64,000 nt of DNA from an uncultured Verrucomicrobiae bacterium. Lineage in GTDB: Bacteria; Verrucomicrobiota; Verrucomicrobiia; Chthoniobacterales; UBA10450. The DNA is taken from NCBI GenBank assembly GCA_963772365.1, contig CAVYXA010000004.1, positions 1-64,000 of the forward strand. The letters are read 5' to 3'. Both the position numbers and the translations under genes were made by a program. Each line of letters starts with the position of its first letter. The stretch's first letter is position 1. Of this stretch, positions 18,549 through 59,517 are shown piece by piece. The notes under the pieces were generated by a model. That model saw only the letters and a program-made list of their open reading frames with translations. It made no database searches and was not told the DNA's origin.

Positions 18549-18577
18549 CTGTAGCGGCAGTCTGTGACCGTCGCAAA
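18549..18577. repeat. GTAG-type REP family B singlet
   Basis: CTGTAGCGGCAGTCTGTGACCGTCGCAAA. Confidence 0.8.
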
Positions 18578-18669
18578 TCTCAACGCGCTTTGGCTTCGAA
18601 CGTTTCGATCACACAGGAAAGCGCGTTCATGACAATTGCGTGTTCAGCATCTAATATCCACGATCCGGC

Positions 18670-20925: not shown

Positions 20926-21006
20926 GTCATTCCGAGCGGAGTCGAGGAATCCCGTGGCCGAACCGAACGCAATGCAACGAGATCCTTCGACTTCGCTCAG
21001 GATGAC
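20926..21006. repeat. Palindromic repeat family D (GTCATYCYGAGCG...CGCTCRGRATGAC)
   Basis: Terminal inverted repeats; copies at 30689 (half), 36677, 39467, 51450. Confidence 0.88.
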
Positions 21007-21016
21007 AAGAGAGAAA

Positions 21017-24500: not shown

Positions 24501-24726
24501 GCCCAACGTGCTCGACCTCATCAAGAACGGGAACATCCATTTCATCATCAACACCCCGAGCGGAAAAATCCCGCGCGAACACGAAGTCGTGATTCGCAAT
24601 GCAGCGCTGGCCGCCAAAATCCCGATAATGACCACGGTGCGTGCCGCCTTGGCCAGTGCCAATGGCATTCGTTCGCTACAAAAACGAAAGGTAAGCGTGC
24701 GCAGTTTGCAGGAGTATCACTTGTAG
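21538..24726 (+). CDS. carB: Carbamoyl-phosphate synthase large subunit
   Basis: [17 protein letters not shown], two ATP-grasp domains, MGS domain. Confidence 0.98.
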
Positions 24727-24790
24727 CGGTCTATGACCGTCGCCGTCTCCGTGTTCAGAAATTTGCGACGGTCACCGACCGCCGCTACAG
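24722..24790. repeat. GTAG-type REP family B inverted doublet, supplying the carB stop
   Basis: TGTAGCGGTCTATGACCGTCGC...GCGACGGTCACCGACCGCCGCTACAG. Confidence 0.85.
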
Positions 24791-28031: not shown

Positions 28032-28889
28032 CTAACGAAGTCTGCGTCGGGCTTCGTCGAGATAGGTCTTGTCGATCTCGAACCCGATAAAGTTCGTTAT
28101 GCCGCAGCGCTGCGCGGCCACAGCGGAATTCCCGATCCCGAGGAACGGATCGAGCATGGTCTCCACGCGTGAGATGCCATGTAACTTGACGCACCATTCC
28201 GCGAGTTGAACCGGAAATGTAGCCGGATGCGGGCGTTCTTTTTCGCGGCTTTGGATGGTCTCGTAAGGAATAAACCAAGTGTTGCCACGGCAACGCAAAT
28301 CCTTACCAACGGTGTGATTCCAACGCGCGATGTTGCTCTTGTCCTGATAAGGAACTCCCAGTGCGAGGCGATCGATTTCCACGCGACCCGATTTCGTAAA
28401 GTGAAAAATGTATTCGTGACAATCATTGAGAAATCGCTTCGAGCTGATCGGCTTGAAATGACCGAATGTCCTCGCGATTTGATCCACTCTCACCCGGCGC
28501 TTCGCGGCCGCCTCTCCCTGCCTAGGGAGAGGATGGTCGTGTTTGAGGTTTTGGGGCTCAATCGCGATCGATTTGATCCAGTGAATCGTATTTTGCAGAA
28601 CGAAAAGTTCCCGAAACTGCAAAACGATTTCGTGCGGCAACATTGGATTGCTGGGCGCCGCGCCGATATTCAAGAAGAACGAGCCGTCAGATTTGAGCAC
28701 GCGCTGAATCTGTCCTGCCCATTGTTTGCACCATTTCAAATACGATTGTCGATTCTGCCGATCATGATATTTCCGATAGGCTATTCCGAGATTGTAGGGC
28801 GGTGAAGTTACAACGAGATCGACAGCTTCCGCCGGAAGTTTCGCCATTCCTTTTACGCAATCTTCCAGTCCGAGATCGAACTGCGTCAC
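28032..28889 (-). CDS. Orphan beta-class amino (N4-C/N6-A) DNA methyltransferase with an in-frame repeat insertion
   Basis: Motif IV TSPPY precedes motif I LDPFLGIG; HPATFP; no restriction enzyme gene adjacent. Confidence 0.9.
   Translation of the reverse strand: MTQFDLGLEDCVKGMAKLPAEAVDLVVTSPPYNLGIAYRKYHDRQNRQSYLKWCKQWAGQIQRVLKSDGSFFLNIGAAPSNPMLPHEIVLQFRELFVLQNTIHWIKSIAIEPQNLKHDHPLPRQGEAAAKRRVRVDQIARTFGHFKPISSKRFLNDCHEYIFHFTKSGRVEIDRLALGVPYQDKSNIARWNHTVGKDLRCRGNTWFIPYETIQSREKERPHPATFPVQLAEWCVKLHGISRVETMLDPFLGIGNSAVAAQRCGITNFIGFEIDKTYLDEARRRLR
28481..28535 (-). repeat. Palindromic element family A inside the methyltransferase ORF
   Basis: Minus strand CCTCTCCCT-AGGC-AGGGAGAGGCGGCCGCGAAGCGCCGGGTGAGAG; matches 34063, 41333, 59194. 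Confidence 0.88.
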
Positions 28890-33582: not shown

Positions 33583-36500
33583 GTGGGTTCGAAGGCTCGC
33601 GGAAAAGAATGTGTTACTGCGCCGTTTGAGACGGGCTGCGTAGAGGTTCGTGGCGCGCGTCAGAACAATCTGAAGGGGATCAATGTCGATCTTCCGCTGG
33701 GGAGATTGACCGTCGTTACCGGCCCGAGCGGTTCCGGAAAATCGAGTCTCGCCTTCGAAACGATTTACGCCGAGGGCCAGCGCCGTTACGTCGAAACGTT
33801 CAGCCCGTACATGCGGCAATTCCTCGATCGCATGGATAAGCCGCGCGTGGACGACATCCGTGGCATCCCGCCAGCAATCGCCATTGAGCAGTCGAACCCT
33901 GTCAAGACATCGCGCTCGACGGTCGGCACGATGACGGAGATCAACGATTATGTAAAGCTGTTCTGGCCGCGCGTGGCTAAGGCGTTTTGCCCAAGCTGCG
34001 GTCGCGAAATCCGCCCGGAGACGGCGAGATCGATCGCGGATGAAATCTTTCGCGTGTTCGGAAGCGACCCTCAACTCAATCCTCTCCGTGGCCAGGGAGA
34101 GGAAGTCGCGAAGCGACAGGTCAGGATTGAATCGAACGCTCTGCCCGGGACCGTGCTTATCACCTTCTGGGTCTCAGTTCCCGCAAAAACTGAACCGAAG
34201 AAATTCTTCGGATTTCTCCAGCAGCAAGGTTATCTGCGCGTCTGGATCGACGACCAAATCGTCCGGGTAGATGTCGAGCCAAAGAAGACGCTGCGGCTCG
34301 GCGCGCGGGTTCAGGTCGTTCAGGATCGGATCGCGATCACAGCTGAAAATCGCGCACGTCTCATCGAAGCGATCGAGACTGCGCTTCGGTTTGGTAAGGG
34401 AAAGCTCAATGTAATTCCGCTCGGTTCTGCTCCTCATCCCTCATCCCTCATCCCTTATCCTTTCTCGACCGGCTGGCATTGCGCGCATTGCGATCTGGAT
34501 ATCCGTCCGCCGACTCCCGGTCTGTTCAGCTTTAACAATCCGCTTGGCGCGTGTCCCGAATGTCGCGGATTCGGTAGAACGATTACGATCGACCTGAACA
34601 AAGCGATCCCGGATCGCTCTTTGTCAATCAAACAAGGCGCAGTCCGCGTTTTTCGCGGTAACGAATTTGGCGAATCGCAAAAAGATTTGCTCCGGGCCTG
34701 CGCGCGAGAAGAGATCGATGTCTATCTTCCCTTCGAGGAATTACCCAAGGCAGATCAAACTTTCGTGATCGAAGGGGAAAAGCGCTCCGGTGAATATACC
34801 GACGAAGATTACGAGAACGACCGCTGGTACGGGGTGCGCGGTTTTTTCCGCTGGCTCGAAGCGCAGACCTATAAGATGCACATGCGAGTCTTGCTTAGCC
34901 GCTATCGGGCTTACACGACATGCCCAAGCTGCAACGGCGGACGGTTTCAACCGGATGCGCTCAATTACAAACTCGCCGCTGTAGCGGCGGTCTATGGCCG
35001 TCGCAAACTTTCCTCTGAAGACGGAGACGCTCATAAAGCGCCGCTACAGCTAGCTCTTCCCGACTTTACAGCGCTTTCGATCTCTGATGCGCAGGATTTC
35101 TTGGCGAAGATCGACATCAACCATAGCGATTCGACCGCGCAAATGCTGCACGGTGAGATTTGCGCACGGTTGAATTACTTGTGCGAAGTCGGTGTCGGTT
35201 ATCTCACGCTAGATCGATCCACCCGCACATTGAGTGGCGGCGAAGTGCAACGGGTCAATCTGACAACCTGTCTCGGCGCCTCGTTGGTCAACACGCTTTT
35301 CGTCATGGATGAACCGAGCGTGGGATTGCATCCGCGCGATGTTGGTCGGCTCGTCCGCGTGATGCACAATTTACGAGACAAAGGCAACACACTGCTGGTA
35401 GTCGAACACGAAGAGCAGATCATCCGAGCGGCCGATAACTTGATCGACATCGGCCCGGGTCGCGGGGAACGCGGGGGCGAATTGGTTTACACTGGAACGT
35501 TGGATGAATTTGTAGGGCAGGCGCTCCGCCTGCCGAACTTAAGAATGGCAAGCGATGCGCTTGCTCTACAATCGCGTTCGCTCACGGCCGATTATTTGAG
35601 CGGTCGCAAATCGATTCCCGTTCCGAAGAAACGGCGGAGATCGAAATCGTCGATCAAGATCGCCGGCGCGCCGAGCACAATCTCAAGAACATCGAGGTCG
35701 ACCTTCCGTTAGGCATTTTCACCTGTGTGACTGGCGTGTCGGGCTCCGGAAAATCGACACTGATCCACGATGTGCTTTATCGAAATCTGCTCATCGCCAA
35801 GGGCCAAACGTCCGACCAGCAAGCCGGCGCCTGCAAATCGGTGACCGGCGCGCATCGGATCGATGAACTCATCATGGTCGATCAATCTCCGCTGGCCCGC
35901 ACGCCGCGTTCGACTCCGATTCTTTATCTCGGTCTTTACGATCGGGTCCGCGAATTATTCGCCACCCAACCGGAAGCGATGGCCCAGGGACTTACCGCCA
36001 GCGCGTTCTCATTCAATTCTGGCGGCGGGCGTTGCGAACGTTGTTCCGGCACCGGCTTCGAAAAGATCGAGATGCAATTCCTGAGCGATCTCTATGTGCG
36101 TTGCGCGGAGTGTGAAGGCAAACGATTCCAGCCCCATGTGCTGAAAGTGAAACTGCACGGCAAATCGATTCACAACGTGCTGGAACTTACCGTCACCGAA
36201 GCTATTCAGTTCTTTGCCCAAATCGGCGAACTGAAAACGCTATCCGAGCCGCTCGATGTGCTCGAGGAGGTAGGACTCGGTTATCTCAAATTGGGGCAAC
36301 CTCTCAACACTTTGAGCGGCGGCGAATCGCAGCGATTGAAGCTGGTGCGGCATCTCTCAGAAAACGCCGAGCACCCAACGCCTAACGTGGAACGCGGAAA
36401 CGGAGAAGGAATTGGCAATCTGTTTATCTTCGACGAACCAACGACCGGTTTGCATTTTGATGATGTCGCGATGTTGCTGAAACTATTTCAGCGCTTGGTG

Positions 36501-39476
36501 GATGCCGGGCATTCCATCGTCGTAATCGAACACAATCTGGAAGTGATTAAATGCGCGGATTGGATCATCGATCTTGGACCCGAGGCTGGCGATGACGGCG
36601 GCGATGTCGTGGCGACAGGCACACCGGAGCAAGTAGCGAAGATCGAGAAGTCGCATACCGGAAGATTTCTTAACCGTGTCATCTCGAGCGAAGCGAAGCG
36701 CAGTCGAGAGATCCCGCAACGATATCAAACCGTTACTGCCCCGGGATCACCGGGCTTCGGTCAGAATGACAACATTGAATTTGCCCGAGCGGCGGAAATA
36801 TCGCCGCGTTTCCAGGCGAATGGCTCGACAGGGGCGATCGCGATTCACGGGGCGCGCGAGCACAACCTGAAAAACATCGACATCAAAATCCCGCGCGATC
36901 AGATGGTCGTGATCACGGGTTTGAGTGGCTCCGGTAAATCGACGCTCGCGTTTGACATCTTGTTAGCCGAAGGACAGCGCCGCTTTCTGGACAGCATGTC
37001 GCCTTATGCGCGTCAGTTTGTCGAACAACTCGAGAAACCCGATGTCGATCTTGTTGAGGGCTTACCACCCAGCGTCGCGATCGAACAGCGCGTCACCCGC
37101 GGTGGTGGGAAATCAACCGTGGCTACGGTGACGGAAGTTTATCATTTCCTCCGATTGTTGTTTGCCAAGACGGGGACACAGTTTTGTCCCGACTGCGATT
37201 TGCCGGTCGAAAAACAAAGCCTGGCTGCGATCGTGAGGCAGGTGGAGACGGCGGTCCGGCGGCGGCCGGACGGGCCGCTGAAAGTGCTTGCGCCGTTGGT
37301 CAAGGCTCGCAAAGGTTTTCACACCGACGTGGCGCGTTGGGCGGAGAGACAGGGATTCGATACGCTGTATGTCGATGGTACGCTGCTGCCCGTCACGCAG
37401 TTTCGGAAGCTCGAGCGATTCAAGGAGCACACCATTGATGTCGTCGTTGGCGTTATCGATGCCAAACGAATTTTGAAATCGCGCAATCTGACGCAGCGCG
37501 CGCTCGATATCGGTCGCGGCACGGCGCACCTGCTGGATGCGAAAAATCGCCTCACGGTGATGAGCACGGAGATGAGCTGTCCCGGATGCGGGCGGGCGTT
37601 TGAAGAACTCGATCCGCGTTTGTTCTCGTTCAACTCGCCTCACGGCGCGTGCGAAGAGTGTGGCGGGTTTGGCGAAATTTGGAACCAGGATTTGCAGACG
37701 GGCCAAAGCGACGATGGTGAATCCGCTCTCGAGAATGAGCTAGTGGCCGAGCGCGAATCGGAATGGATCGACGAAGAAGAAGCGCGCGAGTGCCCGAGCT
37801 GTCACGGCTCGCGCTTGAACGAAGTTGCTCGCCATGTGCGGGTGCAGGGATGCACTATCGACGATTTCACAAATCTTTCGGCCAGCGAAGCTGCGCGTAA
37901 GATCGACAAGCTGAAATTTCACGGAACACAAAAAACTATCGCATCGGAATTATTGCCGGAAATTCGGCAAAGGCTGCGATTCATGGAAAACGTCGGGCTC
38001 GGTTATCTCGCGCTGGGGCGATCGGCCAAGACCTTGAGCGGCGGCGAATCGCAACGCATCCGTCTGGCTGCGCAGCTTGGGTCGAATCTGCGCGGTGTAC
38101 TTTACGTGCTCGATGAACCCACGATCGGTCTGCATCCACGAGACAATCTGCGCTTGCTCGAAACGCTCATCGCGTTGCGAAAAAAGGGAAACTCGCTTGT
38201 GATTGTCGAGCACGACGAAGAAACAATGCGGCGCGCCGATCACATTGTCGATCTTGGGCCGCGGGCGGGAATCCATGGCGGCGAGGTCGTAGTGAGCGGA
38301 ACGTTGCGAGACATCGAGCGGGCGAAAAATTCCGAGACCGGGCGCTGTTTGAAAACGCCGCTTTGTCATCCAATTCGCAAATCGCGACGGTCGCTGCGCA
38401 CGGTCGAGAACTGGATCGAGATTCGAAAGGCGCGCGTCAATAATCTGAAAGATGTTGATGTTCGGTTCCCAGTGGGACGCTTATCGGTCATTACCGGAAT
38501 TTCCGGCTCCGGGAAATCGACTTTGATGCACGATGTGATCTGGCCCGCTGTGCGCGATGAATTGGAAGCGAAAAAGCGCGGCGGCAATGGCGACTTGTTC
38601 AAACTTGTCAGCGGCGCGACCGAGATCGAAGCCGTTTACGAAGTCGATCAATCGCCCATCGGCAAAACGTCGCGCTCGACCCCGGGCACGTACATCAAAG
38701 TGTTCGATGAGATTCGAAACCTTTACGCTCAACTCCCTGTCTCGCGCGTCCGCGGTTATTCAGCCAGCCGCTTTTCGTTTAATGCCGAAGGCGGCCGTTG
38801 CGAAGCGTGCAAAGGGCAGGGCGTGATCAAGCTGGAGATGAATTTTCTGCCGAATGCGCTGGTGCCGTGTGAGGAATGCGGCGGGCGCCGCTACAATCCG
38901 CAAACGCTCGAAGTTCTCTACAACGAAAAATCGATTGGTGACGTAATGGAGATGACGATTGAAGAAGCGGCGCAATTTTTCTCGGCGCATCCAAAGATTG
39001 CGCGGTCGCTCGATTTGTTAGTCGAAACCGGTCTTGGTTATCTCAAGCTCGGCCAACCGAGCCCGACCTTGAGCGGTGGTGAAGCGCAGCGCCTCAAGTT
39101 GGTCACACAGCTCAAACGCGGAGTGAATCGCGCCGCCAACGAGCGGATCCGGAAAATGCGGAAACCGGGATCGACATTATATTTGCTGGAGGAACCAACC
39201 ATCGGCCTTCACATGGCCGACGTGGAATTATTGCTCAACGTGTTGCATCGCCTCGTCGATGAAGGGAACACCGTAATCGTGATCGAGCACAATCTCAGCG
39301 TGATCGCCGAGGCTGATTACATTGTCGATCTTGGACCGGAAGCGGGAGCAGAGGGCGGCGAAATCGTCGCAACGGGCACGCCGGAAGAAGTGTCCAAAAA
39401 TCGAATCAGCCGCACAGCACCGTTCTTGCGAGAAATCTTGAAATCATCACGCACCAAAACAGCGGTGTCATCCTGA
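33583..39476 (+). CDS. uvrA: Double-length excinuclease ABC subunit A (two fused UvrA units); 1-nt frameshift near 35670; several in-frame repeat insertions
   Basis: Four Walker A motifs (GPSGSGKS, GVSGSGKS, GLSGSGKS, GISGSGKS), LSGGE signatures, zinc fingers; the junction GA(fs)EHNLKNI joins ORFs 33583-35712 and 35727-39476. Confidence 0.93.
34063..34125 (+). repeat. Family A element in frame in uvrA
   Basis: AGCGACCCTCAACTCAATCCTCTCCGTGGCCAGGGAGAGG..., close match to the intergenic copy at 41333. Confidence 0.88.
34432..34459 (+). repeat. Heptamer tandem repeat (CCTCATC)x3 + CCTTATC in uvrA
   Basis: Directly visible; encodes PHPSSLIPYP. Confidence 0.85.
34979..35049. repeat. Family B REP doublet in frame in uvrA
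   Basis: CTGTAGCGGCGGTCTATGGCCGTCG...GCGCCGCTACAG. Confidence 0.85.
35510..35571. repeat. GTAG-type REP doublet (family C) in frame in uvrA
   Basis: TTGTAGGGCAGGCGCTCCGCCTGCC...GGCAAGCGATGCGCTTGCTCTACAA. Confidence 0.8.
36363..36397 (+). repeat. Degenerate heptamer tandem repeat (AACGNNN) in uvrA
   Basis: AACGCCG AGCACCC AACGCCT AACGTGG AACGCGG. Confidence 0.6.
36677..36771. repeat. Family D element in frame in the linker between the two UvrA units
   Basis: TGTCATCTCGAGCGAAGCGAAGCGCAGTCGAGAGATCCC...GGGATC...GAATGACA. Confidence 0.82.
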
Positions 39477-39558
39477 GCGAAGCGAAGCGGAGTCGAAGGA
39501 TCCCGCGAAACCGCGATGGAGCTTTGCCACGGGATTCCTCGACTTCACTCGGAATGAC
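39467..39558. repeat. Family D element supplying the uvrA stop codon
   Basis: GTCATCCTGAGCGAAGCGAAGCGGAGTCGAAGGATCCC...GGGATTCCTCGACTTCACTCGGAATGAC. Confidence 0.88.
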
Positions 39559-41332: not shown

Positions 41333-41395
41333 AGCGACCCTCACCTCAGTCCTCTCCCTGGCCAGGGAGAGGCGGACGCGAAGCGCCGGTGAGGG
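41333..41395 (+). repeat. Family A element between tolQ and tolR
   Basis: ACCCTCACCTCAGTCCTCTCCCTGGCCAGGGAGAGGCGGACGCGAAGCGCCGGTGAGGG. Confidence 0.9.
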
Positions 41396-51449: not shown

Positions 51450-51542
51450 GTCATCCCGAGCGCAGCGAAGCGGAGTAGAGGGACCCCGGTGCGTTGGCTT
51501 TCCGGTTTTGCAACGGGATTCCTCGGCTCCGCTCGGAATGAC
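51450..51542. repeat. Family D element between glmM and scpB
   Basis: GTCATCCCGAGCGCAGCGAAGCGGAG...CTCCGCTCGGAATGAC. Confidence 0.88.
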
Positions 51543-58152: not shown

Positions 58153-59517
58153 GTGCACGCGTTTCATTACCGCGATGGCAAACTTCACGGCGAAGATGTC
58201 GATCTTACCTGCGTGGCCGAGCAGTTCGGGACGCCGCTGTATGTATATAGCGCGAGCACAATTCTGGATCATTACCAACGCCTCGATACCGCTTTGGCTC
58301 CGCTCGATCACTTGATTTGTTACGCGGTCAAGGCCAACTCGAACGGCGCGATCTTAAAATTGCTGGGCGATGCCGGCGCGGGGTTCGACATCGTTTCCGG
58401 CGGCGAACTCTTCCGCGTGCTCAAAACCGGCGGTGATCCAGCCAAATGTACATTCGCAGGTGTCGGCAAATCGCGCGCCGAAATCGAGTACACGCTCGAC
58501 CAGGGCGTTTACAGTTTCAATGTCGAAAGCGAAGCCGAGCTGGAATGCATCGACCAAATCGCGGCCGAAAAAAAAGTGCAGGCGCCGATCGCATTGCGCG
58601 TCAATCCCGATGTCGATCCTAAGACACATCATTACATTTCGACCGGGTCGCACGAGAACAAGTTCGGAATTTCGCTCGATCGGGTCGAAGCGATCTACAA
58701 TCGCGCCGCGAAGATGGACAACATCGACATTGTCGGAGTCCAAATGCACATCGGCTCCCAGATTACTGAGGCGAAACCGTTTGCCGAAGCGATCGGGAAA
58801 GTTGCCGGAATCGTGCGCCAGCTGAAATCGAAACACGCCATCAAGTTTTTCAGCATCGGCGGCGGCATGGGAATCATTTATCGCCGCGCATTAGAGAGCG
58901 GCTCGGGCCAATGGTGGCACAAGCATGGTCCCGCATGCGCGGGATCCGCATTCAGCATCCGCGATTATGCCGATGCCATCGTGCCGTCGCTGCGTAAACT
59001 CAATGTCCGGATCCTGGTTGAGCCGGGCCGGTTTCTGGTTGGAAATGCCGGCGTTCTTCTCACCCGGGTTTGTTACGTCAAACAGACCGGCCAAAAGAAA
59101 TTTGCGGTTGTCGATGCTGGAATGAACGATCTCATCCGGCCGGCCCTATACCAGAGTTATCACGAGATCGTGCCCGTTAAAGAGTGTGGCAACACCCTAA
59201 CCTCAATCCTCTCCCTGGAAGGGAGAGGCGGACGCGAAGCGCGGGGTGAGGGTCGAGCCACACCGACCGAGAAGATCGACATTGTCGGACCGGTCTGTGA
59301 ATCAGGAGATTTTTTCGCACTCGACCGGGAGATGCCGCCGCTGCGTCAGGGCGACCTGCTCGCCATCATGAGCGCCGGCGCATATGGATTCACGATGGCC
59401 TCGAATTATAATTCGCGTCCCTTCCCCGCCGAAGCGCTGATTCGCGGGGACCAGTCCAGACTAATTCGTGAGCGACAAACGTGGAGCGATCTGGTGCGCG
59501 GTGAGATCGACAATTAG
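58153..59517 (+). CDS. lysA: Diaminopimelate decarboxylase with an in-frame repeat insertion
   Basis: GTPLYVY, YAVKAN, HIGSQI, EPGR, GPVCESGD, GAYG..MASNYN. Confidence 0.96.
   Translation: MHAFHYRDGKLHGEDVDLTCVAEQFGTPLYVYSASTILDHYQRLDTALAPLDHLICYAVKANSNGAILKLLGDAGAGFDIVSGGELFRVLKTGGDPAKCTFAGVGKSRAEIEYTLDQGVYSFNVESEAELECIDQIAAEKKVQAPIALRVNPDVDPKTHHYISTGSHENKFGISLDRVEAIYNRAAKMDNIDIVGVQMHIGSQITEAKPFAEAIGKVAGIVRQLKSKHAIKFFSIGGGMGIIYRRALESGSGQWWHKHGPACAGSAFSIRDYADAIVPSLRKLNVRILVEPGRFLVGNAGVLLTRVCYVKQTGQKKFAVVDAGMNDLIRPALYQSYHEIVPVKECGNTLTSILSLEGRGGREARGEGRATPTEKIDIVGPVCESGDFFALDREMPPLRQGDLLAIMSAGAYGFTMASNYNSRPFPAEALIRGDQSRLIRERQTWSDLVRGEIDN
59194..59253 (+). repeat. Family A element in frame in lysA
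   Basis: ACCCTAACCTCAATCCTCTCCCTGGAAGGGAGAGGCGGACGCGAAGCGCGGGGTGAGGGT. Confidence 0.88.

Follow-up and report, generated by a model that had tools for sequence, protein, structure and literature searches.

Insertion of REP elements into coding sequence has a precedent in the UvrA proteins of Opitutus terrae. According to the available text of PMC3733652, the 1995-aa UvrA (Oter_2709) holds two in-frame REP inserts and the 999-aa UvrA also holds two; intragenic GTAG REPs of this species fill 70 rows by our own count (Oter_3168 included). The same text notes a bias of intragenic REPs to repair and tRNA genes, and the only same-site reuse of REPs that it gives, as far as available, is in Xanthomonas recB. 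For conserved extragenic sites, the accessible part of the REPORTH study (bioRxiv 10.1101/2024.10.14.618302) suggests that REPINs are overwritten. How REP-type repeats move, and why repair and tRNA genes are favoured, have been open questions since 2013. Intragenic REPs in uvrA are already published; what is new here is a set of fixed slots that unrelated element classes share throughout the family.

Seven in-frame inserts in a double-length uvrA gene

We analysed a stretch of 64,000 nucleotides (the window), to which all plain coordinates refer; coordinates that begin with C lie elsewhere in the same genome (G000) unless another genome is named. The gene under study encodes the conserved double-length UvrA of Chthoniobacterales, in a soil bacterium. 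A profile search matched TIGR00630 to both of its parts, and the closest named relative among the matches listed is a Chthoniobacterales bacterium at 77% identity. The protein has four complete ABC modules (four each of Walker A, signature, Walker B and H-loop) and 12 zinc-binding CxxC pairs, the same numbers as in relatives. The parts of the gene are as follows.

33583..35670, + strand: 5' part of the double-length uvrA, in frame, unit 1 to the end of the first ABC module, motifs intact
35671..35672, + strand: frame break, probably an assembly error: two-base codon within the GAREHN motif
35673..39476, + strand: 3' part, comprising the rest of unit 1, the linker and unit 2

A first, sequence-only reading had listed six repeat elements in this gene, and we recovered all six with matching coordinates and peptides. 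The small hairpin that it mentioned at 37254 is also real and constitutes a seventh insert, of three residues.

34063..34128, + strand: S1, family A double hairpin, an insert of ~27 aa at the start of the UvrB-binding domain
34430..34463, + strand: S2, TCATCCC heptamer array
34978..35050, + strand: S3, family B GTAG REP dimer
35510..35571, + strand: S4, family C GTAG REP dimer
36363..36404, + strand: S5, degenerate AACGNNN heptamer array in the second ABC module, between its signature and Walker B motifs
36677..36771, + strand: S6, palindrome of family D with a GTCA foot, placed in the linker that joins the two UvrA units
37254..37271, + strand: mini-hairpin, a 3-aa insert in the unit-2 loop that corresponds to S1 by alignment
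39465..39558, + strand: family D element from which uvrA takes its final three codons and stop

The inserts measure 9-95 bp, are read in several frames and lie in both orientations. As had been proposed, they fall outside the conserved motifs: none overlaps a Walker A, signature or Walker B motif of any of the four modules, or any of the 12 CxxC pairs. Sequence alignment to 3PIH, 9GXK and 2R6F, together with Pfam ranges and length variation, suggests that S1-S6 are surface loops. The mini-hairpin insert at 37254 occurs in this genome only, among 30 alignment rows covering the site, and has 15 look-alikes in the genome. The density of elements, which the first reading had called unusual for one gene, is indeed high: four palindromes in 5.9 kb compared with 0.17 expected at the genome's in-ORF rate (Poisson P 3e-5, uncorrected for the choice of gene).

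In the assembly, uvrA is split into two ORFs (33583-35712 and 35727-39476) by a one-base frameshift that lies between the family C insert and the AACG array and is caused by none of the inserts. The earlier statement that the inserts keep the frame open is correct in that all seven do so, but a single open frame is not confirmed for the gene, which is broken at 35671-35672 in the assembly. The core is under purifying selection, with dN/dS of 0.06-0.09 on either side of the break, as between relatives. When this genome was compared with its relative G007, 20 of 189 orthologues looked frameshifted in this genome; the comparison drew on 400 kb of G007, a portion of a single contig in a genome of 2.6 Mb, and some of the 20 flags may stem from overlapping weak matches. 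Because of these two observations, we take the break as a likely assembly error. The second, single-length uvrA (C1:1530523-1533392) is among the 20 flagged genes, as is one that, by its tail, we take to be groEL. Furthermore, frame changes occur in 8 of 31 aligned uvrA loci of relatives (7 of the 8 in assemblies of 3-8 contigs), and 22 full-length relatives have one open frame, many of them with as many inserts. A programmed frameshift was rejected because relatives are in frame at the site and G017 breaks at the GAREHN motif in the opposite direction. G017 has two double-length uvrA copies (L032 and L033; C2:3414700-3421800 and C7:66300-73200 of that genome), which fall in different clades and may reflect either contamination or transfer.

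Repeat families and their candidate cognate genes

Searches with nhmmer and genome-built profiles found 31 copies of family A, 63 of B, 61 of C and 49 of D in the 3.35-Mb genome, so all four palindromic families recur outside uvrA. The sequence-only reading had described intergenic siblings of A, B and D in the window. We found siblings of all three; not all are intergenic, as the D element at 39465-39558 ends uvrA and the A element at 59194 is in frame in lysA.

59194..59247, + strand: family A sibling, in frame in lysA (ORF at window positions 58153-59517)
28492..28540, - strand: family A sibling, in frame in the ORF at 28032-28889
41337..41392, + strand: family A sibling, intergenic
24723..24790, - strand: family B sibling, at a gene junction
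2575-2646 and 18549-18583: further family B siblings
51457..51542, + strand: family D sibling, intergenic
20926-21007: further family D sibling

Families B and C qualify as REP/REPIN elements, both occurring in many genomic copies as inverted REP dimers with a spacer. A GTAG or GTGG foot precedes a short stem-loop in 60 of 63 B copies and in all 61 C copies, and a GTCA foot is present in 139 of 150 copies of D and E. The spacers of 14 B and 16 C dimers are all different, and inspection by eye gave no convincing match of the spacers, as remnants, to RAYT cassette ends or host sequence. Family B is present in 15 of 21 published genomes of the family, or 17 of 24 when three unpublished ones are included. 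The heptamer arrays are likewise a feature of the whole genome, in which we counted 72 arrays of period 7 versus 1, 21, 21, 14, 3 and 1 for periods 5, 6, 8, 9, 10 and 11. The TCATCC unit shows clear periodicity, occurring 9 times at period 7 versus 0, 0 and 1 at periods 6, 8 and 9. Three-unit AACG arrays number 14 at period 7 versus 0, 2, 8 and 1 at periods 5, 6, 8 and 9, and on account of these off-period counts we regard AACG as the weaker heptamer family.

In-frame elements were found throughout the genome. In a set of 3117 ORFs from a home-made, unvalidated gene caller, 83 of 547 palindromic matches lie well inside ORFs, affecting 76 of them, and 27 of the 72 heptamer arrays are also inside ORFs. 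We scanned 83 host ORFs of at least 200 aa, 28 of which had no family at E 1e-40. Named hosts include dnaE, dnaE2, dnaG, mutS, mutL, ligD, ftsK, nrdJ, tsaD, tilS, miaB and obg, seven tRNA ligase genes (among them ileS, alaS, metG and cysS) and many metabolic enzymes. Comparison with G007 gave 31 insertions of at least 6 aa, 11 of which overlap a known family. The gene with most inserts is uvrA; a 999-aa oxidoreductase-like ORF has three elements. A recG-like ORF (C1:529891-532605, L069) contains an in-frame RAYT domain between palindromic arms. Heptamer arrays inside ORFs are clustered at C5:14584-89561, with four-helix-bundle genes nearby.

The first reading had treated these repeats as one multi-family system. 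This does not agree with their neighbours, since the families go with separate cassette genes: RAYT genes for B and C, a GIY-YIG gene for D and a four-helix-bundle gene for the TCATCC heptamer.

C1:514947-515417: candidate cognate RAYT gene of family B, flanked on both sides by B
C1:1171378-1171812: candidate cognate RAYT gene of family C, C-flanked
C3:612750-613240: region of the GIY-YIG gene, which starts at C3:612853, and of the D elements on its two sides
C1:1469382-1469781 (listed also as C1:1469415): PF05635 four-helix-bundle gene flanked by the TCATCC unit of S2
C1:1309848, C5:231425, C1:1356093, C6:84765, C5:174768 and C1:1337160: GxxExxY (PF13366) genes

Nine Y1 transposase matches were examined: one is flanked by B, two by C (one of these truncated), one by G and three by H, and the remaining two by none of the 13 families; RAYT genes flanked on both sides were seen for B, C and G. 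The B-flanked RAYT protein scores 91.3 bits against NF047646, above the cut-off of 80, and the C-flanked one 77.8 bits, just under this cut-off and above that of PF01797. Family D lies on both sides of one of nine GIY-YIG matches, which encodes a single-domain protein of 107 aa that no NCBIfam family covers. Inverted period-7 arrays surround PF05635 four-helix-bundle genes, 5 of 12 of which score at least 11 on both sides, compared with 33 of 3000 background windows. This heptamer-flanked cassette class is defined from the present genome, and our literature search returned no paper on it. For family A, a search for a parent gene in this genome (90% complete) gave none; there are two DUF559 (PF04480) matches, neither of them near an A copy. 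The co-location suggests that these small genes may mobilise the repeats that flank them, and the available text of PMC6006769 and PMC11893778 points the same way for RAYT and Ssn, respectively.

Other arrangements of small genes and repeats were noted in the same genome. The GxxExxY genes are each bracketed, as seen by eye, by short inverted arrays whose units are 9-10 bases long. Terminal repeats of family H flank long Y1 transposase genes (C1:1727911-1728957, C3:402560-403468 and C3:400120-400296), which resemble the TIR-flanked subclass 2.1 of PMC6006769 as described in its accessible text. At C1:377020-379069, a tandem array with a period of 321 bp holds GIY-YIG-like ORFs, each behind a tRNA 3' fragment; these fragments carry the mini-hairpin family of uvrA position 37254, and a full tRNA-like gene heads the array.

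Changing occupants of six slots across relatives

We compared uvrA across relatives in an alignment of 32 rows (the truncated G009 and the partial G005 were left out of the trees; G011, G004, G023 and L225 were inspected separately). Orthologues lack the insert peptides of this gene, as the sequence-only reading had anticipated. Inserts as such are not specific to this gene or lineage: they are present in 76 ORFs of this genome, and in relatives other elements occupy the six sites. In 18 rows of the family the six sites differ in length, and in the order's other families they are for the most part unoccupied. S1 is occupied by A, D or another palindrome class, or is empty; S4 holds C or one of two other classes, or is empty; and S6 holds D or the other class. 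On a tree built without the insert columns (18 rows, 17 genomes), which has several weak branches and on which occupant states were set by eye, the occupant class changes 5-10 times per site. The same-genus neighbour G001 differs at five of the six sites. In 91 distant UvrAs, S1-S3 are also variable in length and S4 hardly so, whereas windows in the ABC core are not. Among ten long distant UvrA proteins scanned for whole cassettes, no RAYT, GIY-YIG or DUF559 domain was among the matches listed.

Other enzymes were compared in the same way. We found one shared slot in mutS, plus one insert present in this genome only, and two shared slots in alaS; rpoC showed no such slots in this comparison of relatives. 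In G005, G020 and G021, one alaS slot holds RAYT-like cassettes of ~190-200 residues, bounded by palindromic arms and with a start like that of the RAYT inside recG of the present genome. At this site (loci L199-L217), G000, G009, G010, G011, G016 and G019 have unrelated segments of 50-85 residues.

Some arms of the inserts are better conserved than neutral decay allows. At S3, the B arms keep 80 of 96 third positions (six pairwise comparisons among four genomes, which are not independent), whereas the uvrA gene keeps 54-60% and the S3 flanks are not raised. At S6, the D arm matches its G007 counterpart in 37 of 40 bases and is closer to it than to the D copies of its own genome; among 22 genomes this variant is seen exactly twice, in G000 and in G007, both times at uvrA S6. 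It is therefore not a recent copy from the local pool. The nearest neighbours of G000 and G007 each hold the other class at S6. Nucleotide-level constraint, repeated insertion and short-tract recombination would all account for the arm identity and cannot be told apart with this sampling.

We consider it probable that tolerant loops of the double-length UvrA were filled by several cassette systems and then overwritten. Within one genome, several small and mutually unrelated cassette enzymes would place non-autonomous repeats widely, and selection would retain only those copies that spare frame, fold and motifs. A long multidomain protein would offer many length-tolerant loops, to be refilled over time, and occupants would be replaced by other elements over evolutionary time. 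The insert peptides are likely translated as tolerated, near-neutral loops. This explanation agrees with the variation at six sites within the family and their mostly unoccupied state in more distantly related members of the order, with the co-location of B, C and G with RAYT genes and with in-frame copies across the genome. It agrees as well with S6 arm variants that recur elsewhere in their own genomes, with 7 exact copies in G024 only, and 3 in G020 and 3 in G005. It fits less well with the conservation of the arms at S3 and S6, with the near-constant length of S4 in distant UvrAs and with the missing parent of family A. In addition, empty alleles nested among filled ones (G007, G011) would demand precise loss, short-tract recombination or many independent gains.

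Alternatively, the cassette enzyme active at a given time might recognise a resident hairpin or heptamer array and rewrite it in place, and hot spots would then arise from targeting as well as tolerance. We regard this as possible but distinctly less probable. Most sites do show replacement rather than piling up, the dimer spacers of B and C all differ, and REPINs at fixed extragenic sites 'may be overwritten' in the accessible part of bioRxiv 2024.10.14.618302. At S6, two arms of one variant flank a retained host segment in seven of the eight rows with the class concerned, and two of the three variants tested are genome-specific. However, the variant of G017 is widespread (14 of 22 genomes), some slots hold stacked elements, and the slots showed no shared target motif. 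Moreover, G011 has the left arm alone at S6 with ancestral sequence downstream, so that S6 may in fact consist of two adjacent slots. Exchange of the entire S6 region between lineages was rejected, as trees of the flanks, although short and noisy, did not group by occupant class. Active rewriting of residents is compatible with the filling of tolerant loops by several cassette systems, and would explain replacement.

A bolder form of these ideas, which we put forward as a doubtful proposal, is that in soil Chthoniobacterales loops of core enzymes may serve as programmable slots. RAYT, Ssn-like GIY-YIG or four-helix-bundle cassettes would each be able to rewrite a seeded slot in place, at times by putting in a complete enzyme cassette in frame, and nucleotide-level selection would retain the hairpin residing there. 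If so, loops of DNA-repair and tRNA enzymes would turn over by a general route that has not been described.

It is unlikely that selection at the DNA or mRNA level maintains the hairpins (through stability, pausing or tuning of repair genes) or that the loops alter UvrA activity; a role of REP inserts in repair genes is a speculation of Di Nocera et al. in the available text of PMC3733652. Synonymous change in the arms is low, and many hosts are replication, repair or tRNA enzymes. Short-tract transfer would also yield high arm identity, though, and large metabolic enzymes are hosts as well, the median host length being 426 aa compared with 245 aa for all ORFs. Moreover, the occupants share no sequence relationship, and relatives often lack them.

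We think it very improbable that this uvrA is a real pseudogene that gathered repeats after a frameshift. The break is present in the assembly and a second, single-length uvrA exists, but the break is the only one, the motifs are intact, dN/dS and branch length are like those of relatives, none of the seven inserts disturbs the frame, the full-length relatives are open throughout, and the second uvrA itself looks frameshifted in company with the other flagged orthologues. Removal of the elements from DNA or RNA before translation, to give a protein without loops, is likewise very improbable: the elements do fold into long hairpins and four-helix-bundle genes take their name from intervening sequences of rRNA, yet the inserts keep open frames and sit at length-tolerant sites, neither of which removal would need, and proteins with R. 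conorii RPE-1 are stated to be expressed in vivo (PMC3733652, available text).

Comparison with described systems

Six recurrent coding slots, read across relatives that also hold the candidate cognate enzymes, separate tolerance from targeting, and the uvrA slots offer defined substrates for insertion assays. In an abundant soil group, inserts of this kind and long-read-type frameshifts will lead to wrong annotation and to errors where families are called by length. Our literature search, thin on most subscription journals, found no paper on turnover among unrelated element classes in coding slots.

The closest precedent is the O. terrae orthologue (PMC3733652), rather than the Rickettsia palindromic elements with which the sequence-only reading had compared this gene. 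The contrast it drew with one element per gene was overstated, since the table of PMC3733652, as far as available, has two inserts in several ORFs. By their descriptions in PMC10969869 and PMC3733652, RPEs are palindromes in frame in housekeeping genes, as here; RPE-1 is ~150 bp long with a conserved peptide, whereas the present inserts are 9-95 bp, occur in multiple frames and orientations and have candidate cognate enzymes. O. terrae belongs to the same phylum, and the available text describes a UvrA of the same double length and in-frame REP singles or dimers of 7-25 aa; one UvrA insert there, at residues 638-644, is near S4 by position only. That text gives at most two inserts per ORF, of GTAG families only, in contrast to the seven inserts, at least four element classes and occupant turnover at fixed sites across the family seen here.

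With the REPIN-RAYT systems or REPtrons of PMC6006769, as far as its accessible text goes, families B and C share inverted GTAG-footed dimers and monomers that flank a short HUH/Y1 gene. Family D, flanking a 107-aa single-domain GIY-YIG gene and sharing a GTCA foot with E, resembles the Ssn GIY-YIG system with NTS/SRM repeats in the available text of Chenal et al. 2025 (PMC11893778), with the difference that the 18 places in the genome that match the published SRM pattern all lie outside D and E. REPORTH (bioRxiv 10.1101/2024.10.14.618302) comes nearest in describing occupant change at conserved sites, in P. chlororaphis; in its accessible part these sites are extragenic and the change is among REPIN types only. 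In the present family, by contrast, the sites are coding, the dimer spacers all differ, and the occupants switch among RAYT-type REPs, GIY-YIG-type palindromes and heptamer arrays.
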